The translations under genes and the position numbers were made by a program. Below the pieces are notes generated by a model. The model saw nothing but the letters and a program-made list of their open reading frames with translations, ran no database searches and was not told the origin of the DNA. Below are positions 5,647 through 61,148 of a stretch of 64,000 bases of DNA, piece by piece (positions within the stretch are counted from its first letter, which is position 1; each line of letters starts with the position of its first letter). Location: assembly GCA_964569015.1 (NCBI GenBank), contig CAZMSN010000005.1:2846-66845 (forward strand). Reading direction: 5' to 3'. Source of the stretch: an uncultured Acidimicrobiaceae bacterium. GTDB taxonomy: Bacteria > Actinomycetota > Acidimicrobiia > Spongiisociales > UBA5794.

Positions 5647-5799
5647 ATACCCTCCTCAAGCCTGGCCGAATGCTACTACTCACAGCGGCAAGCGCGCGTG
5701 CCGATCAGAGGAATGATCACCACTGGGGAGACCCGGTCTGGCAGCTCCGGCTCGACGCCCGGCGGCAGCCACATCGCGGCCGCACCAGACCCCGGAGCG

Positions 5800-5871
5800 T
5801 GGGCGCTGGCAGGATTGAACTGCCGACCTCTTCCGCGTCAAGGAAGCGCTCTCCCACTGAGCTAAGCGCCC
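5800..5871 (-). tRNA. tRNA-Val (anticodon GAC)
   Basis: Reverse complement GGGCGCTTAGCTCAGTGGGAGAGCGCTTCCTTGACGCGGAAGAGGTCGGCAGTTCAATCCTGCCAGCGCCCA folds as a cloverleaf. Anticodon loop TTGACGC, T-loop TTCAATC. Confidence 0.9.
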
Positions 5872-5895
5872 TGGGACCGGCTGGAGACCGGTTCG

Positions 5896-5967
5896 AGGCG
5901 ACGCCGGGAATCGAACCCGGGTAAAAGGTTTTGCAGACCTTTGCCTAAACCACTCGGCCACGTCGCC
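5896..5967 (-). tRNA. tRNA-Cys (anticodon GCA)
   Basis: Reverse complement GGCGACGTGGCCGAGTGG...AAGGTCTGCAAAACCTT...CCGGGTTCGATTCCCGGCGTCGCCT. Anticodon GCA, discriminator U. Confidence 0.9.
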
Positions 5968-5993
5968 AGACGGACGGCTCTCGCCGCCCTCGG

Positions 5994-6066
5994 AGCGGAC
6001 GACCGGGATCGAACCGGCGACCTCAACCTTGGCAAGGTTGCGCTCTACCAGCTGAGCTACGTCCGC
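5994..6066 (-). tRNA. tRNA-Gly (anticodon GCC)
   Basis: Reverse complement GCGGACGTAGCTCAGCTGGTAGAGCGCAACCTTGCCAAGGTTGAGGTCGCCGGTTCGATCCCGGTCGTCCGCT. Anticodon GCC, discriminator U. Confidence 0.9.
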
Positions 6067-22186: not shown

Positions 22187-24427
22187 TCAGCCTCCGATGG
22201 GCGTGCGATCCAGCTCCTCGACCGTGATCAACACGGACCGGGCCTTCGAGCCCTCGGAGGGACCCACGATGCCTCTCATCTCGAGGATGTCCATCACCCG
22301 ACCCGCCCGGGCGAATCCGATGCGTAGTTTGCGTTGCAGCATCGAGGTGGACCCGAGTTGCGAGCGCACCACCAAGTCGATCGCCTGACGGACGATATCG
22401 GGATCCTCGCCGTCGTACTCGTCCTCCGCCTCCCTCTTCCTGGTGGCGGCCTCGAAGACCTCGGAGTCCCGATAGGTGGCATCGCGCTGCTCACGCACCC
22501 AGTCGACCACGGCGTGGATCTCCCTCTCGGAGACGAATGCGCCCTGAATCCGTTTCGGCTTCGGCTCACGAGCGGTGACGACGAGCATGTCCCCCAACCC
22601 GACCAGTTTCTCGGCACCCGAAGCGTCGAGAATCACCCGCGAATCGGTCTGGGAGGCCACAGAGAAGGCCAGACGGGACGGGATGTTGGCCTTGATGACC
22701 CCAGTGATGACGTTGACCGAGGGACGCTGAGTCGCCAGCACGAGGTGCACACCGACGGCACGGGCCATCTGGGCGATCCGCACCACAGCGTCCTCGACGG
22801 CACGTCCCGCCACCATCATCAGATCGTTGAGCTCGTCGACGATCACCACGATGTGCGGGAAGCGATCGAAGCCCCCCTCGTCGAGCACTCCTGCATCCCA
22901 CTTCTCGCGGTAGCCGATGATATCCCGCACCCGGGCATCGGCGAGCAGCTCGTAGCGCCGATCCATCTCCTGGACCGCCCACTGCAGGGCGTCGGCCGCC
23001 TTCTTCGGATTGGAGATGACCCTGGTGAGGAGGTGGGGCACACCGTTGTACTGGCCGAGCTCCACCCGCTTCGGATCGACCAGGACCAGGCGCACCTCAT
23101 CCGGCCTGGCGCGCATCAGGATCGACGTGACGATCGCGTTGATGCATGACGACTTGCCGGCACCGGTGGCGCCGGCGATCAGCATGTGAGGCAGGTCATC
23201 GAGCTTGAGGAAGTGGGCATGGCCGCTGATGTCCTTGCCGAGGCCGATCTTCATCGGGTCAGGATCGGCGGAGGCCTCGGCGCTCGCAAGGATGTCGCCC
23301 AGGGTCACGAGGTCCCGATGGTGATTCGGCACCTCGATGCCGATGGCGCTCTTCCCTGGAATCGGCGCCAAGATCCGCACATCGGCCGACGCCATCGCGT
23401 ACGCGATGTCGTGCGACAGCCCAGTGACCTTGGCGACCTTCACCCCTGGCTCCAGCTCGACCTCGTACCGCGTCACCGTCGGTCCCGGCACGATCCGCGT
23501 CAGCCGGGCGTCGACCCCATGCTGGAGCAGTGTCTCCTGCAGCTCGCGGGCGGCTCGCTCCAACGCCCGCCGGTTCTGGCCACCGGTCGAGCCGACATCG
23601 AGCAGCTCGAGCGGCGGCAGCCGGTACGCCTCCCCGACCGGTTGCGCGACGGGCCGGACCGGCTGCTTCGGGCGGGCCTTGGGAGGCGCTGTCTTCTCGG
23701 CAGCGGGCTTCGGCGGGGCGGCCTTGGCCGGAGCCCCGGTCGGCGCTCGGCGCACCGAGGACGACTCGACCAGGCGAGCCGGCACGGTGGTGCGGCGAGC
23801 GTGAGGCCCGAAGCCGAGCTTGTGGACTGCGGCGACGAGGGTGTGGGCCACGTCGCGGATGGTGGCTCTCGTCAGCACCAGCGCCGCCAGGCCACTGATG
23901 GCAATCAGCACCAGGAGGGCACCCCAGAATCCGATGAGGCGGCGCAGCGGGAAAGCGATGAGGGAGCCGGCGACGCCACCGCGGGCGATGACCTCGTCCA
24001 TGCTCTCTGCGAGCGAGACGGCACCGGTCAGGAGATGGTAGAGCGCCAGCGATCCGAGGTAGAGCGCCAGCAATCCCACCGAGACCCGGCCGTAGTCACT
24101 GCGCGGCATACTCCCGATGAGCGCCAGCCCGGCAGCGGCTAGGACCACCGGCACGAAGTACGCCCACACCCCGAACATGAACGCGAGGCCGGTGGTGACC
24201 CCCCGGCCGACCGGCCCGGCGAGGTCGAAGAACGCCATCACCAGGAGGCCGGCGATGACAATACAAACAAGACCCCAGACGTCGTCGGTGTGACGCCCGA
24301 GCCGCCTTCGAAGGCGGTCCCTGCTTCCCCGCAGCGCAGTGAGGAAGCTGGTCCGCTGCTTCTTGGTCTTCCGTTTCCTGACCCTTTTCCGCCCCGTCGC
24401 CCCACGGGATGATCTCCGTGCAGCCAT
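22187..24427 (-). CDS. ftsK: DNA translocase FtsK/SpoIIIE
   Basis: N-terminal TM helices, Pro/Ala-rich linker, Walker A GATGAGKS, Walker B LVVIVDE and a C-terminal gamma-domain wHTH. Confidence 0.85.
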   Translation of the reverse strand: MAARRSSRGATGRKRVRKRKTKKQRTSFLTALRGSRDRLRRRLGRHTDDVWGLVCIVIAGLLVMAFFDLAGPVGRGVTTGLAFMFGVWAYFVPVVLAAAGLALIGSMPRSDYGRVSVGLLALYLGSLALYHLLTGAVSLAESMDEVIARGGVAGSLIAFPLRRLIGFWGALLVLIAISGLAALVLTRATIRDVAHTLVAAVHKLGFGPHARRTTVPARLVESSSVRRAPTGAPAKAAPPKPAAEKTAPPKARPKQPVRPVAQPVGEAYRLPPLELLDVGSTGGQNRRALERAARELQETLLQHGVDARLTRIVPGPTVTRYEVELEPGVKVAKVTGLSHDIAYAMASADVRILAPIPGKSAIGIEVPNHHRDLVTLGDILASAEASADPDPMKIGLGKDISGHAHFLKLDDLPHMLIAGATGAGKSSCINAIVTSILMRARPDEVRLVLVDPKRVELGQYNGVPHLLTRVISNPKKAADALQWAVQEMDRRYELLADARVRDIIGYREKWDAGVLDEGGFDRFPHIVVIVDELNDLMMVAGRAVEDAVVRIAQMARAVGVHLVLATQRPSVNVITGVIKANIPSRLAFSVASQTDSRVILDASGAEKLVGLGDMLVVTAREPKPKRIQGAFVSEREIHAVVDWVREQRDATYRDSEVFEAATRKREAEDEYDGEDPDIVRQAIDLVVRSQLGSTSMLQRKLRIGFARAGRVMDILEMRGIVGPSEGSKARSVLITVEELDRTPIGG

Positions 24428-25612: not shown

Positions 25613-27241
25613 TCACAACTCGATGAGGACGGGGAACACCACGGGTCTGCGATCGATCTGACGCTTCACCGCCTTGGCCGCTGCGCTCCTCACGCTGCGC
25701 CGAAGCGTGTCGAGATCGGTGGGACGGTCGAGCGCCGCCACTGCCCGAGACACTTGCTCCGCCACCTCCTGGTGGATCTCACTCGTGTCATCACTCACGC
25801 CGTGGCTGTCGATGTCCGGACCGAACACCACTTCACCGCTCGAGACGTCAACGCCAACCGTCACGATGAGCACCCCCTCGTCGGCGAGGTGCCTTCGATC
25901 GCGCAGCACCTCTTCGACGTCCCCGAGGCCGGACCCGTCGAGGTAGACGTAGCCGGCCGGGACCGCCCCCCGCTCGATCGTGAGAGTCCCGCCATCGAGC
26001 ACCACGGCGTCGCCGTCCTCACAGACCACCACCTCGGGCACCCCGACCTGGCGTGCCAGCGCCGCGTTGGCGCTGAGATGCCGGTACTCACCGTGGATCG
26101 GCACCATCGCCTGGGGACGGACGATGTTGAAGAAGGTTCGCAGCTCGTCTGCCGCGGCGTGGCCGGACACGTGGACATGGGAATTGAGGCCGTGATGGAC
26201 AATCACCCCGAGCCGGGTGAGATTGTTGATAACCCGTGAGACCTTGGTCTCGTTGCCGGGGATCGGGGTCGCCGAGAGGATCACGGTGTCGCCGGCGGAG
26301 AGACGGATCGAGTGGTGCTCACCGGAGGCCATGAGCGACAGGGCGGCGAACGGCTCGCCCTGGCTCCCGGTGCAGACCACCGCGGTCTGCTCGGGCGGGT
26401 AGTGCTCCAGGTCGTCCAGCTCGACCTGGATCTCGGGCGGGTACTCCAACAGTCCGAGGTCGCGAGCGATCTCGGTGTTGCGCAACATCGAGCGACCCAG
26501 GAAGGCGAAGCGACGTCCCGAAGCGGCGATGGCATCCAGCGCCTGCTGCACCCGGTGGATGTGGCTGGCGAAGCAGGCCACGATCACCCGCCCCTCGGCG
26601 TGCGAGATGAACTCGTTCAGGGGCTTGCCGACCGACGCTTCGGAGGGCACGAAACCGGCCCGCTCCGCGTTGGTGCTGTCACACAGCAGGAGACGAACGC
26701 CGTTCCGGCCGAATCCGGCAAACGTGCCCAGATCGGTCGGCTCGCCGTCGATTGGCGTCGGATCGAGCTTGAAATCCCCTGAATGAACGATGACGCCCTC
26801 AGGGGTGTCGAAAACCAAGCCGGTTGCCTGCGGCACCGAATGGGTCACTCGAACAAGGGTGAAGCGGAATGGTCCATGCTCCACCCATTCCAGCGGCTGC
26901 ACACTGCGCAGATCGGGCACCAATCCGATCTCTTCGATTCGGGGACGTGCCAGCCCGATGGTGAACTCGGTGCCGTAGACGGGGACATTGACATCGCGCA
27001 GCAGATACGCCAGCGCGCCGACGTGGTCCTCGTGGCCGTGGGTGAGGATCACACATTCGAGATCGTCGGAACGCTCGAGCACCGAGGTGAAATCCGGGAG
27101 TACCAGATCGACCCCGAGCATGTCCTCCTCGGGGAACATCAGCCCGGCCTCCATCAGAGCCAGCTTGCCATCGATCTCGAGGATGGCACAGTTGCGACCG
27201 ATCTCACCGAGACCTCCCAGGAAGCTGACCCGGACGGTCAT
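25613..27241 (-). CDS. rnj: Ribonuclease J (metallo-beta-lactamase/beta-CASP)
   Basis: HxHxDH motif (THGHEDHVGA), beta-CASP and C-terminal domain. ATG 27241 overlaps the dapA stop (ATGA). Confidence 0.85.
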   Translation of the reverse strand: MTVRVSFLGGLGEIGRNCAILEIDGKLALMEAGLMFPEEDMLGVDLVLPDFTSVLERSDDLECVILTHGHEDHVGALAYLLRDVNVPVYGTEFTIGLARPRIEEIGLVPDLRSVQPLEWVEHGPFRFTLVRVTHSVPQATGLVFDTPEGVIVHSGDFKLDPTPIDGEPTDLGTFAGFGRNGVRLLLCDSTNAERAGFVPSEASVGKPLNEFISHAEGRVIVACFASHIHRVQQALDAIAASGRRFAFLGRSMLRNTEIARDLGLLEYPPEIQVELDDLEHYPPEQTAVVCTGSQGEPFAALSLMASGEHHSIRLSAGDTVILSATPIPGNETKVSRVINNLTRLGVIVHHGLNSHVHVSGHAAADELRTFFNIVRPQAMVPIHGEYRHLSANAALARQVGVPEVVVCEDGDAVVLDGGTLTIERGAVPAGYVYLDGSGLGDVEEVLRDRRHLADEGVLIVTVGVDVSSGEVVFGPDIDSHGVSDDTSEIHQEVAEQVSRAVAALDRPTDLDTLRRSVRSAAAKAVKRQIDRRPVVFPVLIEL

Positions 27242-28134
27242 ACGGCCTGTGCGGCCTCCAACCCGGATTCGATCAGGGAGAGCGTCTCCGGCGACGCCGC
27301 GATGAGCGGGAGCCGTGGCTCGCCGACCGAGCCCCACCATGCCGACATGCCACCTTTGAGCGGAATCGGGTTCGGCTCAGCGAAGAGGGCAGCGATGAGC
27401 GGCTTCAACGCGTCGTCGATCTTGGCAGCCTCGTCGTCGTCACCCGCCTTCACGGCATCGAGAAGGCGCCGAATCTGGGGCCCAACGAGATGTGCCGCTA
27501 CCGAGACGGCCCCCACGCCGCCGGCGGCGACGATCGCCCGAGTCATCGAATCGGAACCGGAATAGACGGCGAAGCCCTCGGGCAGAGCCGCGAGAGCCCG
27601 TCGTGTGTAGTCGATGTCGTCGACGGCGTCCTTGACGGCAACGATCTTGGGGTGTTGCGCGAGACGAACCAGCGTCTCGACCTCGATGAGGCGGGCGGTG
27701 CGACTCGGGATGTTGTAGAGCATCAGCGGCAGGTCGGAGGCTTCGGCGATCGCCGTGAAGTGCCGGTAGAGCCCCTCCTGGGGAGGCTTCGAGTAGTAGG
27801 GGGTCACAGCCATGACGGCGTCGCAGCCCATCTCCGCCGCCTGTTCGGTGAGTGCGACGGATGCTGCCGTGTCGTAGGTGCCGGTGCCGGCGATGACTTT
27901 GAGGTTGCCGCCGGCCGCGTCGACGGCCGCCTTGAACAGCGCGATCTTCTCGACCTTGGACAGGGTGGGAGACTCGCCGGTAGTTCCGGAGACAACGATG
28001 CCCTCGGTCCCGTTCTCGGACAGGTGACGCACCAAGCGCCAGTACGTCCCGTAGTCGACGGCACCGTCTTCGTCGAAGGGAGTGAGGGTGGCGGTGAGCA
28101 ACTCGCCAAACGGTGCGGTGGGTCGTGCTTCCAT
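27238..28134 (-). CDS. dapA: 4-hydroxy-tetrahydrodipicolinate synthase
   Basis: TIM-barrel DapA motifs (GTTGE, active-site Lys region IVAVKDA). Confidence 0.85.
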   Translation of the reverse strand: MEARPTAPFGELLTATLTPFDEDGAVDYGTYWRLVRHLSENGTEGIVVSGTTGESPTLSKVEKIALFKAAVDAAGGNLKVIAGTGTYDTAASVALTEQAAEMGCDAVMAVTPYYSKPPQEGLYRHFTAIAEASDLPLMLYNIPSRTARLIEVETLVRLAQHPKIVAVKDAVDDIDYTRRALAALPEGFAVYSGSDSMTRAIVAAGGVGAVSVAAHLVGPQIRRLLDAVKAGDDDEAAKIDDALKPLIAALFAEPNPIPLKGGMSAWWGSVGEPRLPLIAASPETLSLIESGLEAAQAV

Positions 28135-31999: not shown

Positions 32000-32422
32000 C
32001 TACTCGGGATCGGGCGGCCGTCGCAGCCGCTTCAGCTCACCGCGAGCCCGCTTCGACGCGAGGCGTCTCCGCCGCGCCGCTCCCGACGGAGCAGTGGGCA
32101 CCCGGCGCCGCCCGGTACGCAGCGCCCCCGCCAGCAGCTCGGCCATGCGCCGGCGCGCGATCACCCGGTTCCGCCACTGGGAACGGGATTCGTCGGCCAC
32201 CACCGTCACGACCCCGTTCACCACCCGCCGGCCGAGCCGCGCCACGAATCGTGCCTTCGTCTCCTCGTCGAGCGCATCGCTCCCGTCGAGATCGAACAGC
32301 AACTCCGCCCGGGTGGCGGAACGGTTGGCGTGCTGACCGCCGGGCCCACCGGCGGGACCGAACCGCCAGCTCAGCTCGCCGTCGGGAATAACCACGCGAT
32401 CGGTGATGCGCAGATCCTTCAT
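32000..32422 (-). CDS. arfB: Peptidyl-tRNA hydrolase ArfB (alternative ribosome-rescue factor)
   Basis: GGQ motif (GPGGQHANRS) and a basic C-terminal tail. ATG at 32422. Confidence 0.8.
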   Translation of the reverse strand: MKDLRITDRVVIPDGELSWRFGPAGGPGGQHANRSATRAELLFDLDGSDALDEETKARFVARLGRRVVNGVVTVVADESRSQWRNRVIARRRMAELLAGALRTGRRRVPTAPSGAARRRRLASKRARGELKRLRRPPDPE

Positions 32423-32478
32423 GGCCCTCAAGCTACCGGACGCGCGACGGGACCCCCGGCATCCGGCCCTGCAGGCAT

Positions 32479-34689
32479 GTGAGACAATCAACGGTTATGC
32501 GTCAGCGCGACCAATCCGTGCTCAACGAGGTCCTCCCCCCAGAGGACCGGGTCATCGAGGCCGTGGTTGCCCGCTACCAACGGGTGGCCCCGGCCGTGAC
32601 GCGCTTCGCCCGCAGCCTCGCCGACAACGAGAACTTGGTGGTGCGGCTCGGTTCGCAGGCGGCGGGTGGAAACGACGAGATCGTGCTCGACCCCGGGGTG
32701 TTCCAGAGCGCCTATGCCCGCAGCGCGCCCGTGACGCCAGCCGAGGTGGCGCTGACCAGCGCCCTGCACGAGGTGGTACACCTCATCGCCACCGACCTCG
32801 ACGAGATGCGGCCCATCCCGCCCGTGTGGATTCCCCCACCATCCCAGAACCCGCCGCGCGAACGGGCGCCCCTGTCCTCGCCGCTCGGTCTCTTCCCGGA
32901 TGACGACCCGCCGATCGACCTCCCCCCCGAGGCCGACCCAGCCACTCCTGTCCGGCTGCTCGACGCCCTCGCCGAGGTCGGAGGACCGGCGGCCGAAGCG
33001 CTGTTCCTCTCCTTGGAGGACGCACGCCAGGAGCGCACCCTGCTCGCCGCATACGCCGGCGCCCGGTCGGTGCTGGCCGACCTCTACCGCAGCGCCACAC
33101 CACAGGCGATGCAGAACGCCCGCCCCCTCGGCCAGTTCGCCCTCGCCTGCTTCCTGGTGACCGGCGGCTACGCCGACCGCAACGGCCTCCAGCGCAGGCT
33201 CGCCCCGCACGTCGCCGCCGCCCTCGACGACGCGATGGACTGCCTCCACGATGTCCCCACCGCCGCCGGCCCCTGGGAAGTCGGAGGGCTCGCCCTGCGC
33301 CTTCTCGAGATCGCGCTCCTCCACGGCCTGGTCCAGCAGACCGACCCTTCCGATTCGCCTGCTGCCAACCGCGCCAAGGGCGAAGCGGATCGGGCGGCGA
33401 TCTCCGAGACCGTCGATGCCGTGCGCATCGTGACCCCACCGCTCCAGGACGCCGACAGCTACGACCAGACCCGCCGTGCGACCCAGGCGGTGACGGCCCA
33501 GCACGGCAAGGCCGGCGACGCCCAGCAAGCAGGAGACCCCGCCACCGATCAGGTGGTCCGTGTCAGTGAAGCGCCCACGATCTACCTCCCGACCGGCCAG
33601 AGCGGCAAGCTGCTGGTGTGCCCCTTCCCCGATCGCTTTGCTCGCCACGCCCCCGATGGGCGCCGCCTCATCGAAGAGGCCGCCTTGCGCTGGCAAGTTG
33701 CGCAGCGCCGAGTAGCCGGTGAGCTCTACCCCCTCTTCGTCGCCAACCAGCGGCGCGGGCTCCGCTCCGGCTACGACGCCGGCGACCTCTCGCCGTACGC
33801 GGCGCTCTTGCTCGGTGCCGGGCTCTACGAGCGCATGTTCGAGCGGCGCGACCTACCGTCACGACGCTCCTACGGCGTGAGCCTGCTCGTCGACGGATCG
33901 GCGTCCATGCTCCAGCCGAAGGCAACCCCCGACGGACGCAACACCCCGTGGCCGCTGGCCGCTGCCATCCTCGGCGCCTGGACCCTCGCCAACCTGTGCA
34001 ACGAGCTTCAGATCGATTTTGAGGTCGCGTTCTTCAACCGGGCGTTCGCCGCGGTCGCCGACGATACCGAGCGGGCCTTCTCCGATCGGCGCCACGCCGC
34101 CACCGGGGCGCTGCGGCGCACCCAGGGAGGGGCTGCGCCACGACTGTCTCGGACCGTCAACCACTACCTCCTCAAGCCGTTTGGTGCCCGCTGGCGGACT
34201 GCTGAGGACATCCTCGCCGGGCTCTTCTGGATGGCGGCGACGCCCTCCGACGCCGCACGCGTCGCCCGCCTCTCACCCGAGGAGGCGCCCCCGATCTCGA
34301 TGTTCGACAAGGCCGCCAACGTCGACGAGTACAACGTCGCCTACGCCGCCCGCCGGCTGGCAGGCCGCAACGTCTCGACCCGCATCCTGGTGGTGCTCGC
34401 CGACGGCATGACCCGCGGCTCGGTCGAGGATCTCGCCGCGTCCGTGCGATCGGTCGAGGGGGCCGGAGCCGTCGTGCTCGGCATCGGCATCGGCGACGAC
34501 ACCGTCCAAGCCGCCTACGATCGCAACCAAGTCGTCGAGCGCCCCGATCATCTCGCTCGCGCCATGGTCGACGGCGTTCGCTCGACCCTCTATCGCACGA
34601 TCGCCGCCGCCGGCGGCAACACCTGGTGGGCTCACACCAGCGAGCGCGCCGTCTACGATCATCCCGCCCCAAGGAGCATCGATGCCTAG
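32479..34689 (+). CDS. Large von Willebrand factor A (VWA) domain protein, CobT/NorD/CbbO-like
   Basis: 736 aa with a C-terminal VWA domain and MIDAS motif (LLVDGSASM). Its stop overlaps the start of the downstream AAA+ gene. Confidence 0.65.
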   Translation: MRQSTVMRQRDQSVLNEVLPPEDRVIEAVVARYQRVAPAVTRFARSLADNENLVVRLGSQAAGGNDEIVLDPGVFQSAYARSAPVTPAEVALTSALHEVVHLIATDLDEMRPIPPVWIPPPSQNPPRERAPLSSPLGLFPDDDPPIDLPPEADPATPVRLLDALAEVGGPAAEALFLSLEDARQERTLLAAYAGARSVLADLYRSATPQAMQNARPLGQFALACFLVTGGYADRNGLQRRLAPHVAAALDDAMDCLHDVPTAAGPWEVGGLALRLLEIALLHGLVQQTDPSDSPAANRAKGEADRAAISETVDAVRIVTPPLQDADSYDQTRRATQAVTAQHGKAGDAQQAGDPATDQVVRVSEAPTIYLPTGQSGKLLVCPFPDRFARHAPDGRRLIEEAALRWQVAQRRVAGELYPLFVANQRRGLRSGYDAGDLSPYAALLLGAGLYERMFERRDLPSRRSYGVSLLVDGSASMLQPKATPDGRNTPWPLAAAILGAWTLANLCNELQIDFEVAFFNRAFAAVADDTERAFSDRRHAATGALRRTQGGAAPRLSRTVNHYLLKPFGARWRTAEDILAGLFWMAATPSDAARVARLSPEEAPPISMFDKAANVDEYNVAYAARRLAGRNVSTRILVVLADGMTRGSVEDLAASVRSVEGAGAVVLGIGIGDDTVQAAYDRNQVVERPDHLARAMVDGVRSTLYRTIAAAGGNTWWAHTSERAVYDHPAPRSIDA

Positions 34690-35671
34690 ACCCGTCACCT
34701 TCACCGACCCGACCGGCGACGGCCCTCCCGTCGAGCTGGATTCCGTCGAGGTACCCCCGGGACTCCCCGATCGCGAGCTGCGGCTCGCCCACGTCCCGAA
34801 GCCCGATCCCTACTACGTCGACCTCGGGATGCTCTACAAGCTCGCCCAACTCGAGCAGGTCCGCCGGCTCCATTTCACCGACACTCCTCTGCATCTCGCC
34901 CTCCGGGGCCACATGGGCACCGGCAAGGACCACGACCTCGAGCAGTTCGCGGCGCTGCTCGGCATGCCCCACTACCGAATCCCCCTCACCGGTGAAGTGC
35001 GCGACATCACCCTGATCGGTTCGGTCAAGCTGCACGGAGACGGCAGGGGCGGTACCGAGAGCAGGTGGCAAGACGGCGACATCACCCGGGCCCTGCGGGG
35101 CCCCGCTCTCATCAACCTCTCGGAGTTGAACGCCGCCGGAGCCGAGACCTTGTTTGCCCTTCACGGCCTGCTCGACCGCCACCAGGCGCTCGAGCTCCCC
35201 ACCGGCGAGATGGTGCGCCTGCGAAGCGACGTGCGGGTCTTCGGGACCCTCAACCCCACCGATCTGCGCGACTATGCCGGCACCCAGACGCTCAACAAGG
35301 CTTTCGCCGACCGGTGGATCATTTGGGAGAAGGACTTCCCCGACGAAGCCCAGCTCGCCGGGATGCTCGACCGCCGCCACCCGGGCCTCAAAGCGGAATT
35401 CGTGGAGCCCATCGCCAAGCTGGCCGTCGAAGTCAACGCCTCGTTCACCTCAGCCGATGCCCGTACCCGGGTCGAGACCCCGATGAGCCTCCGCACCGTG
35501 CTCGATCGCGTCCCGGCCGGGCTCCGAGTGTACGCCGGGAGCAGCGACCCGCTGCGCGACGCCTGGGACGAGTTCGTGCTTCCTCACATCGATCCCTTCG
35601 ATCGAGATCACTATGAGACGGTGTGGGCGGCAGTGGTGCGGCACGGACCCGCCGGGCCGCCCTTCGCCTGA
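34682..35671 (+). CDS. MoxR/CobS-like AAA+ ATPase with non-canonical Walker motifs
   Basis: Walker A-like GHMGTGKD, Walker B-like ALINLSELNAA, sensor-1 VFGTLNPTD and ...NKAFADRW (MoxR/CobS pattern). The start overlaps the upstream VWA gene. Confidence 0.65.
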   Translation: MPRPVTFTDPTGDGPPVELDSVEVPPGLPDRELRLAHVPKPDPYYVDLGMLYKLAQLEQVRRLHFTDTPLHLALRGHMGTGKDHDLEQFAALLGMPHYRIPLTGEVRDITLIGSVKLHGDGRGGTESRWQDGDITRALRGPALINLSELNAAGAETLFALHGLLDRHQALELPTGEMVRLRSDVRVFGTLNPTDLRDYAGTQTLNKAFADRWIIWEKDFPDEAQLAGMLDRRHPGLKAEFVEPIAKLAVEVNASFTSADARTRVETPMSLRTVLDRVPAGLRVYAGSSDPLRDAWDEFVLPHIDPFDRDHYETVWAAVVRHGPAGPPFA

Positions 35672-35719
35672 GCACATCCGACCTGCAGCCAGCGGCGACG
35701 GGCTATCGTCACGCCCGCC

Positions 35720-36205
35720 ATGCCTTCGTTCGACGTCGTGTCCCAGGTCGATCTCCAGGAAGTCCGCAACGCGGTCGATCAGGCCTCGCGCGAGATCGTG
35801 AATCGCTACGACTTCAAGGGCACGGAGACCACGGTCAGGCTCCAAGACAACTCGATCGTGCTCGAATCAAGCACCGAACAGCGCCTCGAGGCGGCCGTCG
35901 ACGTCCTCAAGGGAAGGCTCGTCAAACGCAAGGTGTCGCTCAAGGCACTCAGCGGCGGCGAGCCGCGGCCGGCCGCAGGAGGCCGGTCGCGCAGCGAGTT
36001 CACGCTCAATCAGGGAATCGCCCAGGATGCCGCCCGTGAGCTGTCCAGACAGGTCCGGGACCGCAAGCTCAAGGTGCAGGTCCAGATCCAAGGTGACCAG
36101 CTTCGCGTCCAGGGCAAGAAGCGCGACGATCTCCAGGAGGTCATCGCCTTCCTCAAGGGCCTCGACTACCGCCTGCCGCTTCAGTACGTCAACTACCGCG
36201 ACTGA
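35720..36205 (+). CDS. yajQ: YajQ-family nucleotide-binding protein (UPF0234)
   Basis: MPSFDVVSQVDLQEVRNAVDQASREIVNRYDFKG signature. Confidence 0.8.
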   Translation: MPSFDVVSQVDLQEVRNAVDQASREIVNRYDFKGTETTVRLQDNSIVLESSTEQRLEAAVDVLKGRLVKRKVSLKALSGGEPRPAAGGRSRSEFTLNQGIAQDAARELSRQVRDRKLKVQVQIQGDQLRVQGKKRDDLQEVIAFLKGLDYRLPLQYVNYRD

Positions 36206-36210
36206 GCCGC

Positions 36211-36750
36211 TCAGCGGTCCTCGGCAGCGAGCTCACCGATGTACGGGAGGGTGCGATAGCGCTCGGCGTAGTCGAGCCCGTACCCCACCACCCACACATC
36301 GGGGATGGTGAAGCCCAGGTAGTCGATGGCGACTTCGGCCTCGGTGCGATCCGGTTTGTGCAGCAGCGTGCACAGCTTGAGCGAGGCGGGACCACGGGCC
36401 GTGAGCAGACGTTGCAGGTAGGCGATCGTGTGACCGGTGTCGACGATGTCCTCGACGACCAGCACGTGCTCGTCTGCGATATCGTGCCGGACGTCCATGA
36501 GGAGCCGCACCGATCCGAGGTGCTCCTCGCTCTCGCGATCCCCGTAGCTGGAGACGGCGATGAACTCGATCCGGTTGGGAACGGTGAGGCGGCGGGCGAG
36601 GTCGGACAGGAACACGAACGAGCCCTTGAGCACCCCGACGAGCACGAGGGAATCGACGTCGGCGTAGTCCCGATCGATCGTGGCCGCCAGCTCGGCGACC
36701 TTGTGCCGGATCTCTTCCTCGGTGACGAGCGGTGCAGGTGGGTGCGCCAT
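36211..36750 (-). CDS. hpt: Hypoxanthine-guanine phosphoribosyltransferase
   Basis: PRPP-binding motif VLVVEDIVDTGHT. ATG at 36750. Confidence 0.85.
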   Translation of the reverse strand: MAHPPAPLVTEEEIRHKVAELAATIDRDYADVDSLVLVGVLKGSFVFLSDLARRLTVPNRIEFIAVSSYGDRESEEHLGSVRLLMDVRHDIADEHVLVVEDIVDTGHTIAYLQRLLTARGPASLKLCTLLHKPDRTEAEVAIDYLGFTIPDVWVVGYGLDYAERYRTLPYIGELAAEDR

Positions 36751-36800
36751 CGCCGTGACGGTACTTCCTCGCTCACACGATGTCGCAATCGAACCGTCGA

Positions 36801-37481
36801 TCAGGCATCGGTGACGAGCCTCGCCGCGATCTCCACCGCTTCGAGCAGATTGGTGGCGATGGGAGTTCGCGCCTCGGCGAGCAGCTCGGCGAGGTGATGC
36901 GACCCGCCGTCGTACACCACGCACTTGATCCCCGTCTCGCGCGCGGCGCCGGCGTCGTCGAGGGCATCGCCGATCAGCACGACCCGTGCCGGGTCGAGGC
37001 TCCCGAGGGCGACCTCCAGATCGGCGAGATGGCGCTCCAGGTGATGGAGCTTGGTCTCGCCGGCCTCTCCTCGATTGCCGTCGACGCGGACCATGGCCCG
37101 GTCGAGGCCGTGGGCGGCAACCGCTTGCACCAGCTCACCGTGCCACCACATGGACAGGATCGATTGGCTCCATCCGGCATCGCCGACTCGTTCGACGGCG
37201 AGCCGGGCATCCTCGGTGAGGGGAAGCGACGCGACGCCTTCCCGGTATCCCTGATGGAAGACGGCATCGATCCGGCGCCACTCGTCCTCGTCGATGCGAC
37301 GATCGAGGAGGCGCTCGTAGAAGACAGCAACGGGACGGGTGTAGTGGGTCCGGTAGGCATCGGCGTCGATGGGCTCGGCGCCGATGTCCTCCAGCGACAG
37401 GTTGACGGCGTCGACGACCAGTTCGAGGTCGTCGACGAGGGTGCCGTTCCAGTCCCAGATCACGTGTGGTGTGTCGCTCAC
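36801..37481 (-). CDS. HAD-superfamily hydrolase (phosphatase-like)
   Basis: HAD motif I DWNGTL and a C-terminal GD..D motif. Confidence 0.6.
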   Translation of the reverse strand: MSDTPHVIWDWNGTLVDDLELVVDAVNLSLEDIGAEPIDADAYRTHYTRPVAVFYERLLDRRIDEDEWRRIDAVFHQGYREGVASLPLTEDARLAVERVGDAGWSQSILSMWWHGELVQAVAAHGLDRAMVRVDGNRGEAGETKLHHLERHLADLEVALGSLDPARVVLIGDALDDAGAARETGIKCVVYDGGSHHLAELLAEARTPIATNLLEAVEIAARLVTDA

Positions 37482-37586
37482 GGCTCACGACTGTACCCGG
37501 GCACTCGTCATTCCTTCACCGCGTCCCCACCGTCGGGAACGGGAGTCCCGTGCCCTGCGCCGGAAGGTCCCGCTAGCGTGCGGGCC

Positions 37587-38654
37587 ATGCGTCCCTATCG
37601 GCTCGGCAACGACGACCTCGATCGGCGGCTGCGTCAACTCGTCAGCGACGCCGTCGCATCCCATGAAGGACGGGCCCAAGACGAGGGCCTCATCGCCGAG
37701 ATGCTGGTGAGCGGCCTCAAGCTGCTGCTCGACGACACCGACACCGGAGATCTCAAGCTGGTCAACAGCGCCCTCAAGGAGCTGCGCTACGCACTCTTGA
37801 TCTTCTCGCGCTACCGGGACACACCCAAAGTGACGATGTACGGCTCAGCCCGGGTGACCCCGGATGACCCCAACTACCGGCTCGCCGCCGAGTTCGCCAA
37901 TCTCATGGCCGACACCCACAACTGGATGATCGTCACCGGCGCCGGCCCCGGCATCATGGAAGCCGGCAACAAGGGCGCCGGGACGGAGTACGGCTTCGGG
38001 GTCAACATTCGCCTCCCCTTCGAAGCCGATCCGAATCCCTACGTGCACGAGAGCCGCCTCATCAACTTCAAGTACTTCTTCACCCGCAAGCTCATGTTCG
38101 TCAAGGAATCCCACGCCTTCGTCCTCTTTCCCGGCGGGTTCGGAACCCAGGACGAGACCTTCGAGCTGCTCACGCTCGTGCAGACCGGCAAGTCGGACAT
38201 GCACCCGATCGTGCTCATCGAAGCGCAAGGCACCGGCTACTGGGAATCGTGGCTGGCATTCGTCTTGACGCTGCGTGAGAAGGGCATGATCCTCCCCGAC
38301 GACTTCAGCCTCTTCAAGTACACCACCAGCGTCGAAGAGGCCTGCAACGAGATCCTCCGGTTCTACGGCAACTACCACTCACAGCGCTTTGTGGAAGGAA
38401 AGCTGGTGCTCAGGCTCAAGCACGAGCCGAGCGACGAGTTGGTCGCCGAGCTCAACGACGAGTTCCCCGACATCCTGGTTCGAGGCTCGATCGAGAAGAT
38501 CCCGGCCACCCCGGCCGAGAACAACGACGGCGACAACGTCGATCTCCACCGCATCAGGATGCACTTCGATCGGCGTCATCTGGGACGTCTCCGACAGCTC
38601 GTCGACCGCCTCAACGAGGCCGCGGCGAACCAAGAGGACGGCGCGGGCCGGTAG
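37587..38654 (+). CDS. LOG-family nucleotide 5'-monophosphate nucleosidase, long (PpnN-like) form
   Basis: LOG motifs GAGPGIMEA and PGGFGTQDE with N- and C-terminal extensions. Real start at ATG 37587; the upstream 269 codons of the track ORF are antisense to the HAD gene. Confidence 0.75.
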   Translation: MRPYRLGNDDLDRRLRQLVSDAVASHEGRAQDEGLIAEMLVSGLKLLLDDTDTGDLKLVNSALKELRYALLIFSRYRDTPKVTMYGSARVTPDDPNYRLAAEFANLMADTHNWMIVTGAGPGIMEAGNKGAGTEYGFGVNIRLPFEADPNPYVHESRLINFKYFFTRKLMFVKESHAFVLFPGGFGTQDETFELLTLVQTGKSDMHPIVLIEAQGTGYWESWLAFVLTLREKGMILPDDFSLFKYTTSVEEACNEILRFYGNYHSQRFVEGKLVLRLKHEPSDELVAELNDEFPDILVRGSIEKIPATPAENNDGDNVDLHRIRMHFDRRHLGRLRQLVDRLNEAAANQEDGAGR

Positions 38655-43082: not shown

Positions 43083-46000
43083 ATGGCGCTCAGTCGCTTC
43101 ACCCCTGCCACGCGCGCCTGGTTCGAGGCGTCATTCGCCGCGCCCACCACCGCCCAGACACTGGGGTGGGCCGCCATCGCCGACGGCGAGCACACCCTGA
43201 TCCACGCCCCCACCGGCTCTGGCAAGACCCTCGCCGCCTTCCTGTGGGCCCTCGATCGCCTCTCCGCCGAGCCCACCCCGCCCGAACGCGAGCGCTGCCG
43301 TGTGCTCTACGTGTCCCCGATGAAGGCCCTCGCCTACGACGTCGAGCGCAACCTGCGGGCGCCGCTGACCGGCATCCAGCTCGCCGCCGACCGCCTGGGA
43401 ACGGCGCCCCCCCGGCTCACCACCGCGATGCGCACCGGCGACACTCCGGCCAGAGAACGACAGGCAATGGTGCGCCACCCGCCCGACATCCTCATCACGA
43501 CCCCCGAATCGCTCTACCTGATGCTCACCTCACGAGCCCGCGAGATACTGCGGTCGGTGCGATGGGTCATCGTCGACGAGATCCATTCCGTTGCCGCCAC
43601 CAAGCGGGGCACCCACCTCAGCCTGAGCCTGGAACGCCTCACCGAGATCGCCGACAGCCCCCCGCAGCGCATCGGCCTCTCCGCCACCCAGCGGCCCCTC
43701 GAAGCGATCGGGCAGTTCCTCGCAGGCGGCGTCATCGACGAGGACGAGTGGAAGGCCCGACCCGTCACCATCGTCGATGCTCCCTGGCAGAAGCAACTCG
43801 AAATCCAGATCGTGGTCCCGGTCGAGAACATGCTGCGACCGGAGGAGACCCCGCCTGCCGCCGGAGATCCGATCGAGCCCGAGGACGGCGCCCGCCGCTC
43901 GATCTGGCCTGCGGTGTATCCCCGTCTCCTCGACCTGATCCGAGAGCACACTTCCACGCTCCTGTTCGTCAACAGCCGCGGCCTGGCCGAGCGGCTCGCC
44001 GCCGAGCTGAACCGGCTCGCCGGCGAGGAGCTGGTGCAGTCCCACCACGGCTCGGTGTCCCGCGAGCGGCGGCTCGAGATCGAGGGACGGCTCAAGAGCG
44101 GCGAGTTGCGAGGCGTCGTCGCCACCTCCACCCTGGAGCTGGGAATCGACATGGCCGCCGTCGACCTCGTCGTCCTCGTGGAATCTCCCGCCTCGGTCGC
44201 CCGCGGCCTGCAGCGGGTGGGGCGAGCCGGGCATCAGGTGGGCGTGCCGAGCCGGGCTCGGGTGTTCCCCAAGCACCGCGGTGATCTGCTCGAGACCGCG
44301 GTCGTGGTCGATCGCATGTACCAGGGCGCCATCGAGGAGACGAAGATCCCCGCCAACCCACTCGACGTGCTCGCCCAGCACGTCGTTGCCGCGACGGCCG
44401 TTGAGCCTCGCAAGGTCGACGACCTGTACTCGCTTGTGCGTCGCGCCTCCCCGTATCGCGATCTCACCCGCGGTGCCTTCGAAGGCGTGCTCGACATGCT
44501 CGCCGGCCGCTATCCGTCCGATGAGTTCGCCGAGCTGAGACCTCGCATCGTGTGGGACCGCGTCGAAGACACCGTGACGCCGCGGGGCAACGCTCGGATG
44601 CTGGCGGTGACGAACCCGGGCACCATCCCGGACCGCGGCCTCTACACCGTCATGCTCCCGGAAGGAGGACGGGTCGGTGAGCTGGATGAGGAGATGGTCT
44701 ACGAGCGGCGACCCGGAGACGTCTTCGTGCTCGGGTCGACCTCGTGGAAGATCTCCGAGATCACCCACGATCGGGTCATCGTCAGCCCCGCCCCGGCGCA
44801 GGCCGCCACCTTCATGCCCTTCTGGCACGGGGACGGGCCGGGAAGGCCCTGCGAGCTGGGACGAGCAATCGGCGCCTTCGTGCATGAGATCGGAGGTTTG
44901 GATCGTGCCGAGGCCGCCGAGGCACTCCGGGAACGCTATCGCCTCGATCCCTGGGCCGCGGCCAATCTCGCCGAGTTCCTCGAGGAGGAGCGCAGCATCA
45001 CCGGGACGCTTCCCAGCGACCGCACCATCGTCGTAGAGCAGTTCCGCGACGAGATCGGGGACTGGCGCACCGTGCTGCTCTCGCCGTTCGGGGCCCGGGT
45101 CCATGCCCCGTGGGCGCTGGCCGCCCGACGCCGCTACCGCCGCAGCCACGGCGTCGAGGTCGACGTCATCTGGAGCGACGACGGCATCGTCTTCCGCTTC
45201 CCGGATGTCGACGCGCCACCGTCGACCGCCGAGCTGGTGATCCCCCCCGATGAGATCGACGACCTGGTGCTCGAAGAGGTCGGCGACAGCGCCCTGTTCA
45301 CCTCACACTTCCGCGAGGCGGCGGCGCGGGCGCTGCTCCTCCCCCGGCGCCGGCCCGGCACGCGGACGCCGCTGTGGCTCCAGCGGAGGCGGGCCGCCGG
45401 CCTGCTCGACATCGCCAAGCGCTTCAGCTCCTTCCCGATCGTGCTCGAGACCTACCGCGAGGTGCTCCAGGACCACTTCGACCTCCCCGCCCTGCGGGAG
45501 GTGCTCACCGGCATCGCCCGCCGTTCCATCCGGGTCGCCGAGGTCGAGCTGCACGGCCCCAGCCCGTTCGCCACCTCGCTCATGTTCGATTTCCTGGCAT
45601 CGTTCATGTACGAGTACGACGCACCCGCCGCCGAGAAACGCGCCGCGGCGCTCACCCTCGATCGCAAGCTGCTCCAGGAGCTGCTCGGCGATCCCCAGTT
45701 CCGCGATCTGCTCGACCCCGATGTAATCGCTCAGGTGGAGCTGGAGCTGCAACGCCTCGCCGAGGATCGCAAGATCTCAGGGCCGGACGCTCTCCACGAT
45801 GCGCTGCGCGACCTCGGGCCGCTGACCATTGAGGGTGTCGCCGCCCGAGCCACCGACCCCGCGGCCATCACCGCCTGGATCACCACTCTCACACAGTCGC
45901 GCCGGGTCGTACCAATCCGCGTCCACGGCACCGACGGGTTCGCCGCCGTCGAGGATGTCTCCCGACTGCGCGACGCACTCGGGATCTCACCCCCGCCGGG

Positions 46001-60648: not shown

Positions 60649-61148
60649 CCTGCGGCACCCCGGAGCGCAGCGACGATGTCGGTGACCTTCTCCGGGGTGA
60701 GGTCGCCGTATGCCTCGTCGTTCACCAGCATCGCCGGGGCCTGGTCACACATGCCGATGCAGTTGGCCCACTCCAGCGTGAACAGTTCGTCCTCGGTTGT
60801 CTCCCCAAATGACACGCCCAGCTCGCGCTCGAGCTGATCGGCCACCGCCTGCTTGCCTGCGAACTCGCAGCTGAGCGTCCGGCACATCCGGATCACATAG
60901 CGGCCGGTTCGTCGTGTGCCGAGGAACGAGTAGAACGTGGCCACCCCATAGACCTCGACGGGTGGCACGTCCAGCCGGTCGGCGATCACCTGCATCGCCA
61001 GGTCGCCGATCTCCCGATACCGCTCGCGTAGGTCCTGCAGCACGGGGATGAGCGCATCGCGGCTCCGTCCGTGGCGCTCCACCAGAGCGTCGATCTCGTC
61101 GACCAGCTCCGCCTGTTGCGCGGTCAGCTCGGGTGGCACGGTCAGCAT
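60645..61148 (-). CDS. NuoE-like [2Fe-2S] thioredoxin-fold subunit (HydC/HndA-type)
   Basis: CRTLSCEFAG ... CIGMCDQAP cluster-binding motifs. The ATG overlaps the HydA stop. Confidence 0.8.
   Translation of the reverse strand: MLTVPPELTAQQAELVDEIDALVERHGRSRDALIPVLQDLRERYREIGDLAMQVIADRLDVPPVEVYGVATFYSFLGTRRTGRYVIRMCRTLSCEFAGKQAVADQLERELGVSFGETTEDELFTLEWANCIGMCDQAPAMLVNDEAYGDLTPEKVTDIVAALRGAAG

Follow-up and report, generated by a model that had tools for sequence, protein, structure and literature searches.

Two adjacent genes in the window (the whole 64-kb stretch of DNA analyzed here) encode a CobS-like AAA+ ATPase and a CobT-like adaptor, and the ATPase has exchanged two residues of its nucleotide site: Asp stands at the position after the Walker A lysine (K+1), and Ser stands where Walker B has Asp. 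Both positions are strictly conserved proton-handling residues, and replacing either normally abolishes P-loop NTPase activity (PMC9599734). Our best explanation, which we consider somewhat probable, is that the pair is a divergent, Acidimicrobiia-specific AAA+/VWA remodelling motor of the CobS/CobT type with a compensated, re-wired metal site.

Both open reading frames are present and intact on the + strand, at 32479..34689 (736 aa when read from a GTG) and 34682..35671 (329 aa). The preliminary description had started the upstream, adaptor gene at the GTG, but gene callers on four independent contigs begin at the ATG at 32497 (32497..34689, 730 aa), as does database cluster P0121, which is the 730-aa form; the start is probably 32497, with the GTG at 32479 lying 18 nt too early. 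The start of the AAA+ (AAA_5) gene does overlap the adaptor stop by 8 nt, as first described (ATGCCTAG, 34682..34689, + strand), and this overlap recurs in 23 related loci; elsewhere the junction is an overlap of 1-4 nt (4 loci) or a gap of 7-17 nt (about 25 loci). A search for orthologous pairs, which the preliminary description had proposed, found the two genes next to each other in 61 of 63 loci. The adaptor (VWA) gene comes first here, the reverse of the order in the nearest canonical relatives, where the AAA gene precedes the VWA gene.

The previously noted flanking genes arfB (RF-1 domain) and yajQ (DUF520) were confirmed, and hpt, an M16 peptidase gene and dapB are further neighbours of the pair. 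These conserved neighbours are housekeeping genes and look like general core-genome synteny. As had been reported, no adjoining client gene was found, either in the window or among the conserved neighbours across related loci. The NorQ/NorD and CbbQ/CbbO genes adjoin their client genes, norCB and cbbLS, whereas no client gene lies beside the pair here, and neither norCB nor Rubisco genes were found among its neighbours. No cobN or other cob gene was detected in the 64-kb window or among conserved neighbours, and neither protein matched a PADLOC anti-phage model at E up to 1.

The family differs from CobS/CobT in being chromosomal, single-locus and restricted to uncultured Acidimicrobiia. At 50% identity over the full length, its members fall into a single cluster among 1.84 billion representatives; the AAA+ gene is present in about 218 species-level genomes, and the adaptor has 1103 homologues. 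The AAA+ gene is the most conserved of its neighbourhood, with a median identity of 79.6% compared to 68-73% for dapB, the M16 peptidase gene and yajQ in the same loci.

Assignment of the 329-aa protein to the MoxR/CobS/NorQ class of AAA+ proteins, with a VWA-MIDAS partner, was borne out by a Pfam AAA_5 (PF07728) match over residues 71-211 (E 2.8e-12, 47.3 bits against a cut-off of 22). Its best NCBIfam match is the CobS equivalog TIGR01650, at 44.1 bits against a cut-off of 558.55. CobS is also the best single-domain PDB match of the AAA+ profile (E 3.8e-29), with residues 72-313 collinear with 67-308. The highest-scoring sequence matches are to midasin/Rea1, at ~30% identity per AAA domain, and these high midasin E-values reflect six summed domains, as this eukaryotic ribosome-assembly protein carries six AAA_5 domains and a MIDAS domain on a single giant polypeptide. 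The AF2 model (pLDDT 88) has CbbQ (E 1.3e-15) and NorQ (E 3.4e-15) as its top Foldseek matches. CobS of the CobNST complex (PDB 9ujv, 9uka; bioRxiv 10.64898/2026.07.21.739949) is collinear with the protein and, like it, ~330 aa long; the two share an N-terminal P-x-P-x-Y-(V/I)-D lead-in, the H2 and PS1 inserts, the sensor-1 Asn, a DRW/DRF Arg finger and the sensor-2 Arg. Sensor-1 Asn191 (35252..35254) and arginine finger Arg211 within FADRW (35312..35314) are invariant, outgroups included, and correspond to CobS N186 and R210, while sensor-2 Arg271 within MSLRTV (35492..35494; all + strand) is nearly invariant and corresponds to CobS R271. The helix-2 insert forms a beta-hairpin in the model (aa 113-131; 35018..35074, + strand; strands 113-119 and 125-131) that is predicted, by analogy with the CobS and NorQ structures, to be the pore element gripping the partner's shaft. 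A second, pre-sensor-1 hairpin is modelled at 169-179.

The Walker A motif GHMGTGKD, followed by H84-D85, lies at 34907..34936, and the Walker B motif LINLSE at 35108..35125 (both + strand). A phmmer alignment to the midasin AAA domains placed GHMGTGKD on GETGTGKT/GSPGVGKT and LINLSELNAA on WIVLDELNLA, and a MAFFT alignment with 13 canonical relatives gave the same correspondences. Therefore, Asp83 (34928-34930) occupies the Walker A K+1 position and Ser147 (35120-35122) takes the place of the Walker B Asp, as originally proposed. Measured against the consensus GxxGxGK[S/T], GHMGTGKD keeps Gly and Lys and deviates at K+1; measured against hhhhDE, LINLSE has Asn145 in place of a hydrophobic residue at -2 and Ser147 in place of Asp, and it keeps the catalytic Glu148. 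The P-loop K82, E148, N191, R211 and R271 are all retained, in agreement with the CobS site list. The swap itself is present, but it is not isolated as first thought: M78, H84, D85 and N145 are likewise unvarying and peculiar to the family, making this a six-position remodelling that sets the protein apart from CobS. An earlier suggestion that the NR of DEINR had been lost used the wrong comparator, since the CobS/CbbQ/NorQ/midasin clade has DELNxx and its Asn is kept here (SELNAA).

GHMGTGKD and xxNLSELNAA are found in 120/120 of the nearest protein clusters. Across 85 genes, Asp83 is encoded by GAC (64) or GAT (21), and Ser147 by TCC (43), TCG (27), TCT (7), TCA (7) or AGC (1). Each replacement costs at least two nucleotide changes, as read from the sequence (e.g., ACN to GAY, and GAY to TCN/AGY). 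GK[ST] goes together with DE or EE in each of the 33 canonical relatives examined, and no half-swapped form was seen among them or among the 120 nearest clusters. Asp at K+1 was found in 0 of 503 P-loops of related midasin-type AAA_5 domains, 491 of which have S/T. The two substitutions are thus found only together and in no canonical relative, which is what a reciprocal and plausibly compensatory swap, as put forward in the preliminary description, would predict.

Such a swap would keep a hydrogen-bonded hydroxyl/carboxylate pair beside the metal, with its polarity inverted and its summed side-chain length equal. We infer that the Asp83 carboxylate would contact and ligate the metal directly from the P-loop, with Ser147 taking the second-shell role. 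The metal-nucleotide would still be bound and would probably still be hydrolysed via Glu148, Asn191, Arg211 and Arg271, and altered kinetics and metal dependence are possible at the re-wired site. Given the extra substitutions H84, D85, N145 and M78, the site may bind something other than Mg-ATP held in the conventional manner.

Natural deviations at these positions have been catalogued by Kozlova et al. 2022 (PMC9599734), and include Gly at K+1 in NMP kinases, Glu for the Walker B Asp, and Asn at K+1 in torsinA and DnaC, whose ATPase activity is very low and which possibly work as switches; torsinA also lacks the catalytic Glu. In MglA, Thr takes the place of the Walker B Asp, an Asp on the neighbouring strand compensates, and function is kept (PMC9599734 supplement), a precedent for a carboxylate supplied from another position. 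Like MglA, torsinA, DnaC and the NMP kinases, the present family departs from the "strictly conserved" pair in a lineage-specific way. However, a carboxylate at K+1 combined with a hydroxyl at Walker B is in none of the deviations of Kozlova et al. 2022 (PMC9599734), and a literature text search, of incomplete coverage, returned no report of it.

The partner had been described as a VWA protein with an intact MIDAS, which it is, but it appears from its sequence to be more than that: a CobT-like protein with the full CobT layout, including a zincin motif (HExxH...E), a candidate shaft and a CobT-type MIDAS. In the order seen in CobT, a putative M48C-like domain at the N-terminus is followed by a disordered linker, the candidate shaft and a VWA domain whose MIDAS reads D-S-S-N-D. 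The VWA domain spans aa 459-704 (33871..34608, + strand), with D466-S468-S470 at 33892-33906, N608 at 34318-34320 and D636 at 34402-34404; all five residues are invariant, and DGSAS is present in 120/120 homologues. By fold search the closest domain is the VWA domain of NorD in the NorQD complex, with the midasin MIDAS domain also a top match. The midasin MIDAS domain is the sole PDB sequence-profile match of the adaptor, and a weak one. Pfam CobT_C (PF11775) scores 17.1 bits on the window protein, below the cut-off of 21, and is the commonest Pfam match in the adaptor family, with weak matches in 39/45 members (best E 1.6e-5). The CobT N-domain model PF06213 matched 1/45 members (E 0.15) and not the window protein. 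Using hhalign, the adaptor matched phage CobT over the shaft and VWA region (prob 95.5%, E 1.4e-8). Its match to the CobT_C-containing protein that is paired with a canonical relative extended along the whole adaptor (prob 93.9%) and brought HExxH and EDARxE into register; a direct hhalign to phage CobT_N covered just 27 columns (E 0.05).

The N-terminal helical domain (aa 15-335; 32539..33501, + strand) appears CobT_N/M48C-zincin-like from its AF2 model and alignment. The model contains one helix, a small beta-sheet and ~9 helices (pLDDT 80-97 over aa 150-330), agreeing with the published description of CobT_N, which resembles the peptidase M48C fold (10.64898/2026.07.21.739949), and the domain aligns with the N-domain of an outgroup partner. 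Its zincin-type HExxH motif, HEVVH (H91-E92-x-x-H95; 32767..32781, + strand), reads HE[VA][VI]H in 120/120 homologues, and its aligned counterparts in the outgroup partners and phage CobT are HETAH, HELGH and HEAGH; in a weak alignment, the residues at this position of the solved chelatase CobT are apparently DSMAL. A candidate third-ligand glutamate helix, LEDARQE (E174...E179; 33013..33033, + strand), has E174, R177, Q178 and E179 invariant and aligns with VEDARVE, LEDARVE and LEDIWLE of the outgroup partners and phage CobT. The adaptor and phage CobT both keep HExxH...EDxxxE; the "orphan" cobST pairs of phages and archaeal viruses are, together with the chelatase CobS/CobT, the systems most similar to the present one. 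Between HExxH and the Glu helix, the adaptor has a long Pro-rich insert (aa about 99-153) that distinguishes it from CobT. Within the conserved pre-VWA segment (aa 405-440, ...ELYPLFVANQRRGLRSGYDAGDLSP...; 33709..33816, + strand), invariant columns are more tightly packed (G408-P433) than anywhere else in the adaptor. The segment aligns with the one directly before the VWA domain in phage CobT; pLDDT is low there in the monomer model. From a position equivalent to that of the CobT shaft and the NorD finger, both observed inside the pore, it is a candidate shaft/finger entering the AAA+ pore.

By homology with CobST and NorQD, the 329-aa AAA_5 protein would form a hexamer, and the helix-2-insert hairpins of this hexamer would grip the conserved shaft before the partner's VWA domain. 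The ATPase small subdomain would be the docking site of the zincin-like N-domain, and the MIDAS (D466, S468, S470, N608, D636) would bind a client, presumably encoded elsewhere, through one of its acidic residues. That client would be remodelled as nucleotide powers a rotation or pull of the shaft. NorQ/NorD (Fe insertion into cNOR; PDB 9qh4-9qhg; PMC13036017) and CbbQ/CbbO (Rubisco activase; PDB 6l1q, 5c3c) have canonical Walker motifs and the AAA+ gene first, whereas here the motifs are swapped and the order is inverted. The adaptor-first order also separates the pair from CobS/CobT, as does the lack of a cobN/cob context.

A less probable reading, though one that deserves weight, is that the hexamer binds ATP or ADP and scaffolds the partner as a switch or pseudo-ATPase, with hydrolysis abolished or nearly so, like torsinA and DnaC. 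Loss of activity is the usual outcome of replacing K+1 or the Walker B Asp, natural AAA+ variants at K+1 have very low ATPase activity (PMC9599734), and a P-loop carboxylate near the beta and gamma phosphates could weaken nucleotide binding. The high conservation of the AAA+ gene is itself compatible with a non-hydrolysing switch. However, nothing would oblige a pure scaffold to keep Glu148, the trans Arg finger, sensor-1 and sensor-2, and torsinA, unlike the protein here, has lost the catalytic Glu too. The changes are moreover reciprocal and always paired, with no half-states, which argues for compensation and not decay. Since the remaining catalytic motifs are intact and no neighbouring gene is as well conserved, the sequence data favour a constrained, nucleotide-handling enzyme over a pseudo-ATPase scaffold. 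Simple error at the two codons, whether in sequencing or assembly or through decay into a pseudogene, is ruled out, with a probability we regard as negligible: the same residues recur across 120 clusters and across 85 genes, drawn from independent assemblies, whose codons vary synonymously, the reading frames are intact in a gene carried by so many species-level genomes, and nothing was found in favour of an artefact.

Two further readings concern the function of the pair, and we consider each improbable. In one, the pair would be the CobS/CobT of Acidimicrobiia and act with a distally encoded CobN or ChlH-type subunit as a genuine cobaltochelatase motor, inserting cobalt in aerobic B12 synthesis. 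The profile matches to CobS and TIGR01650, the frequency of CobT_C among the partners and the Asn as fourth MIDAS ligand, as in CobT, are consistent with this, and most cobN-bearing prokaryotes lack cobS/cobT, with viral cobST proposed to use the host CobN (PMC8651126). However, the TIGR01650 score is far below the equivalog cut-off, the window adaptor falls under the CobT_C cut-off and is missed by the CobT N-domain model, cob genes are absent from the window and conserved neighbours, and the gene order is inverted. The partner also keeps the HExxH that chelatase CobT, by the weak alignment above, appears to lose. That same motif is the basis for the other reading, in which HExxH...E is an active zincin, the ring feeds or positions the substrate and the MIDAS serves as receptor, an FtsH-like logic split over two polypeptides. 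The invariance of the motif and of E174/E179, its presence in outgroup partners and phage CobT but apparent degeneration in chelatase CobT, the M48C-like fold of CobT_N and the frequent peptidase annotation of phage cobT (PMC8651126) all point in this direction. Yet the fold matches listed for the adaptor are all VWA domains, none covering the N-domain, and no Pfam peptidase family matched it. The ATPase small subdomain and the client are the docking partners of this domain in CobST and NorQD, with protease activity not reported (10.64898/2026.07.21.739949, PMC13036017), and a conserved HExxH could instead bind a structural metal or a metal for delivery.

Within the favoured reading of a compensated remodelling motor, we tentatively suggest, as a possibility that falls short of probable, that this is the first natural P-loop/AAA+ ATPase to hydrolyse ATP with an inverted Ser/Thr(K+1)-Asp(Walker B) polarity, driving a CobT-like adaptor with an HExxH zincin site competent for catalysis or metal transfer. 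H84, D85 and N145 would then possibly tune the site to another divalent metal or to strictly metal-gated nucleotide binding. By trading "universally conserved" residues, the family offers a natural test of how a very common class of ATPases works. If the inverted polarity is real, nature would have supplied a direct test of the proton-relay mechanism proposed for P-loop NTPases, and the motor would count as a new housekeeping remodelling system of the Acidimicrobiia.

The ORF scan places two same-strand ORFs at 32479–35671 (+). The first, which encodes the CobT-like VWA-MIDAS protein (hereafter the adaptor), can be read from GTG at 32479 (736 aa) or from ATG at 32497 (730 aa). The preliminary description had taken the GTG; both database cluster P0121 and the gene calls made on four independent metagenomic contigs begin at ATG 32497 instead, and adaptor residue numbers here follow the 730-aa form. 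The second ORF, at 34682–35671 (+), encodes a 329-aa CobS-like AAA_5 protein (hereafter the ATPase), whose ATG shares the octamer ATGCCTAG with the adaptor stop. Across related loci, the two genes overlap by 8 nt in 23 and by 1–4 nt in 4, and are separated by a gap of 7–17 nt in about 25. The GC content of the pair (~0.70) is the same as that of the remainder of the region. Scans of 32300–36400 for σ70 promoters and intrinsic terminators found none, a result that is uninformative at 70% GC in an actinobacterium.

The ATPase matches Pfam AAA_5 (E 2.8e-12; 47 bits, cut-off 22) and, weakly, the CobS equivalog TIGR01650 (44 bits vs 558). A single-sequence search of the PDB returns midasin AAA domains first, then NorQ, CobS and CbbQ; with a profile of the family (the Acidimicrobiia orthologues), CobS is the best single-domain match (E 3.8e-29) and is collinear over residues 72–313 vs 67–308. 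In phmmer alignments to midasin, GHMGTGKD pairs with GETGTGKT/GSPGVGKT and LINLSELNAA with WIVLDELNLA. Aligned by MAFFT with 13 canonical relatives (related AAA_5 proteins with normal Walker motifs), independently of phmmer, the ATPase shows the identical Walker register. Because these alignments agree, we assign Asp83 to the position of the Walker A Ser/Thr that follows the P-loop lysine (K+1), and Ser147 to that of the Walker B Asp. The correspondences in the preliminary description are therefore borne out by phmmer, by the CobS profile match and by MAFFT. Canonical Walker motifs elsewhere in the ATPase, which it had named as contrary evidence, are ruled out, as all alignments return the original placement and the protein holds no second GxxxxGK[ST]. 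Its statement that the NR of "DEINR" is lost does not stand, since that motif is the one of MoxR proper. In the CobS/CbbQ/NorQ/midasin clade the corresponding motif is DELNxx, and the Asn is kept in SELNAA.

GHMGTGKD and xxNLSELNAA are present in 120 of the 120 nearest protein clusters (78–100% identity). Across 85 genes drawn from independent assemblies, the Asp83 codon is GAC (64) or GAT (21), and the Ser147 codon is TCC (43), TCG (27), TCT (7), TCA (7) or AGC (1). Judging from these sequences, Asp83 and Ser147 are held by selection while their codons drift. Each replacement requires at least two nucleotide changes. In related midasin-type proteins K+1 is Asp in 0 of 503 P-loops and Ser or Thr in 491, and all 33 canonical relatives examined combine GK[ST] with a Walker B of the DE or EE type. 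The swap is reciprocal, as first proposed: the two replacements always occur together (120/120 clusters), and no half-swapped form was seen among the 33 outgroup sequences (best 150 of 3342 representative matches inspected). Sequencing error and pseudogene formation are ruled out by the same residues in 120 clusters and 85 genes, and by the 218 stretches that encode the ATPase. In more than 200 species of this lineage, strong purifying selection maintains the swap.

Other positions also set the family apart. The closest canonical relatives read GHTGTGKTEA... and ...IVILDELNAA, and relative to these the changes T78M, E84H, A85D and I/L145N are invariant or nearly so, so the swap is part of a wider remodelling of the nucleotide site. 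The P-loop Lys82, catalytic Glu148, sensor-1 Asn191, Arg finger Arg211 and sensor-2 Arg271 are all retained, matching the CobS site residues listed in the CobSTN preprint (Walker A G71–S78, D141–E142, N186, R210 and R271; 10.64898/2026.07.21.739949). The AF2 model of the ATPase (pLDDT 88) has the helix-2-insert and pre-sensor-1 hairpins, and CbbQ and NorQ are its closest Foldseek matches.

In the window adaptor, Pfam CobT_C and VWA matches are sub-threshold; CobT_C is matched, weakly, by 39 of 45 family members. The AF2 model (pLDDT 71) contains a well-predicted N-terminal domain (aa 15–335; one helix, a small sheet and about nine helices), disordered linkers, a conserved pre-VWA segment and a VWA domain (aa 459–704). 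With hhalign, the adaptor matches a bona fide phage CobT, which carries both Pfam CobT and CobT_C, at 95.5% probability over aa 411–694 (putative shaft and VWA domain). It also matches the 609-aa CobT_C-containing partner of P0395, a canonical relative, at 93.9% over aa 43–698, with HEVVH placed on HETAH and LEDARQER..Y.G on VEDARVEK..F.G. Probable homology of the N-domain to CobT is recovered via this intermediate rather than by direct profile, where comparison with two phage CobT N-domains yields 27 columns around LEDxxxER (E 0.05). The direct alignment breaks because of a Pro-rich, low-confidence insert (aa ~99–153; window 32790–32955) that separates the HExxH helix from the Glu helix and is missing from phage CobT and the outgroup partners. 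Against the PDB, single-sequence and profile searches gave marginal matches only, to the midasin MIDAS domain and the integrin I domain. The MIDAS residues are D466, S468, S470, N608 and D636, and Asn as the fourth ligand is a further likeness to CobT. The densest invariant run, G408–P433, matches the CobT shaft and NorD finger in position.

HE[VA][VI]H is found in 120/120 adaptor homologues, with E174 and E179 invariant, and the HExxH...EDxxxE signature is common to the adaptor, phage CobTs and outgroup partners. The form HExxH plus (L/V)EDxRxE occurs in all examined CobT-like adaptors outside true chelatases (family, phage CobT and canonical AAA_5 partners); it lies at 32767–32781 and 33013–33033 in the window and, elsewhere, within L086:3693-5642, L087:6228-8042, L089:1634-3460 and L090:9119-10999. 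The solved chelatase CobT (9uka_G) appears to have GDSMALRQARH at this place, a loss that is tentative because the alignment is weak. Since the orphan adaptors keep HExxH and 9uka_G seems to be without it, the ancestral or "orphan" CobT N-domain may be a functional zincin or metal site, as this pattern suggests.

On homology, the pair is probably a member of the CobS/CobT-like branch of AAA_5/VWA pairs. Its adaptor-first order, which had been described as reversed, is indeed so, and is derived, because the ATPase gene comes first both in phage cobS-cobT pairs and in the family's canonical relatives. At the locus of another canonical relative, P0393 (L090 1-12200 and L091), an AAA_5 protein whose Walker B is of the EE type (LLLEEMNAT) and whose sensor-2 Arg is replaced by Gly is paired with a 627-aa CobT-like protein. 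Neighbours there are LarC-like (Ni_insertion), LarB-like (AIRC) and LarE-like genes, two DUF362 proteins, a CbiA/ParA ATPase and a radical SAM enzyme, and the locus may be a metal-cofactor maturation cluster.

A HMMER search of 1.84 billion 50%-identity representatives recovered a single full-length cluster, P0241 (75% identity), together with fragments and chimeras; past P0241, matches jump to eukaryotic midasins and a few short proteins at 30–45% identity. Several of the family's 50%-identity representatives are frameshifted or chimeric predictions (P0247, P0248 and P0253), with the adaptor VWA C-terminus joined to the ATPase N-terminus in P0253 and a 3-hydroxyacyl-CoA-dehydrogenase-like N-terminus joined to the ATPase in P0248. 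These look like assembly or gene-calling artefacts rather than real fusions. A scan of species-representative genomes identified 218 stretches encoding the ATPase, and the 80 loci retrieved are almost all from uncultured Acidimicrobiia/Actinomycetota MAGs.

In the window, the pair is flanked by a divergent upstream arfB (RF-1 domain) and by yajQ (DUF520), 48 nt downstream of the ATPase gene, followed by hpt on the opposite strand. The retrieved loci provide the orthologous pairs sought, with adaptor and ATPase adjacent in 61 of 63; neighbouring metalloenzyme genes were not found in the conserved neighbourhood at these 80 loci, which agrees with the original placement between arfB and yajQ with no obvious client gene. 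The surroundings are a conserved core-genome neighbourhood (yajQ downstream in 56/72, arfB upstream in 42/60, an M16 peptidase gene in 41/49 and dapB in 39/48). A ribosome-linked role, which a neighbouring arfB and the likeness to midasin had raised, was rejected: the arfB gene is divergent and its adjacency tracks general core-genome synteny, and the role is further weakened because the midasin scores arise from summed repeats. The ATPase is the most conserved gene at these loci (median 79.6% identity), with the caveat that the loci were picked by match to the ATPase; the medians for dapB, M16 peptidase and yajQ lie at 68–73%, and that for the adaptor at 68%. The pair has no PADLOC match for defence systems, and no mobile-element signs were seen near it in the window context.

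The region is ordinary actinobacterial core genome, including a tRNA-Val/Cys/Gly cluster (5799–6066, −), FtsK (22187–24427, −), RNase J (25613–27340, −) and a 1466-aa Lhr-type large helicase (43083–47483, +). A 603-aa ORF (20316–22130, −) fuses chorismate-binding (PabB-like) and class IV aminotransferase (PabC-like) domains. The first half of the 624-aa mechanical ORF at 36780–38654 (+) is probably spurious and overlaps a conserved HAD-like gene (36801–37481, −); only the C-terminal ~350 aa of the ORF are a LOG/"lysine decarboxylase"-family (SLOG) protein, kept in 46/54 related loci. A 720-aa ORF (61142–63307, −) fuses [FeFe]-hydrogenase large and small subunit domains to NuoG-like 2Fe-2S/4Fe-4S modules, which is notable for an Acidimicrobiia genome fragment.

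The proposed working mode is like that of CobST, NorQD and CbbQO. By analogy with CobST/NorQD, the ATPase would form a hexameric ring whose H2-insert hairpins grip the adaptor shaft inside the pore; the adaptor N-domain would sit on the ATPase small subdomain and its MIDAS would bind a client, with nucleotide driving rotation or stretching. The K+1 hydroxyl of a canonical P-loop NTPase is a ligand of Mg2+ and shares a hydrogen bond with the Walker B carboxylate (PMC9599734). The swap would retain this hydroxyl/carboxylate pair, with equal combined length, beside the metal, and the Asp83 carboxylate would enter the first coordination shell. We infer a compensated inversion of the active site, and lean slightly towards the pair being a functional motor. 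A working nucleotide site is preferred over a dead one because the site still has its catalytic Glu, Arg finger and both sensors, because the replacements are always paired, because the ATPase gene is exceptionally conserved, and because in MglA the Asp is relocated with function retained (PMC9599734). It is possible, if rather doubtful, that the ATPase is instead a non-hydrolysing switch: replacing either residue normally abolishes activity (PMC9599734), torsinA and DnaC, which vary naturally at K+1, hydrolyse ATP very poorly, and H84, D85 and N145 may point to another metal or ligand.

There are two further readings. A true cobaltochelatase motor working with a distant CobN is improbable; the ATPase differs from CobS proper in failing the equivalog score and in having no cob context in the window or the conserved neighbourhood. 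A peptidase output, which is compatible with the functional motor, also seems unlikely. CobT_N resembles a peptidase M48C domain and docks on the CobS small subdomain (10.64898/2026.07.21.739949), and annotations of phage cobT as a peptidase are frequent (PMC8651126).

For P-loop enzymology, an inverted active site is surprising. In a 2022 survey of ~3,100 catalytic sites, the Walker A Ser/Thr and Walker B Asp were termed strictly conserved, and the two were proposed as a universal hydrogen-bonded proton-trapping module (PMC9599734). The natural exceptions catalogued there comprise K+1 replaced by Gly or Asn, the Walker B Asp replaced by Glu, and the MglA relocation; the Asp-K+1/Ser-Walker-B exchange is not among them. 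Our literature search found no precedent, which is absence of evidence only, as its coverage was incomplete. The lineage thus offers a ready-made natural experiment on the Walker A/B pair: if the ATPase turns over ATP, the Ser/Thr-Asp pair matters and its orientation does not. The family extends CobST/NorQD/CbbQO-type AAA+/VWA machines to a chromosomal, apparently housekeeping system, and the intact zincin motif in CobT-type adaptors outside true chelatases hints at roles beyond metal insertion.
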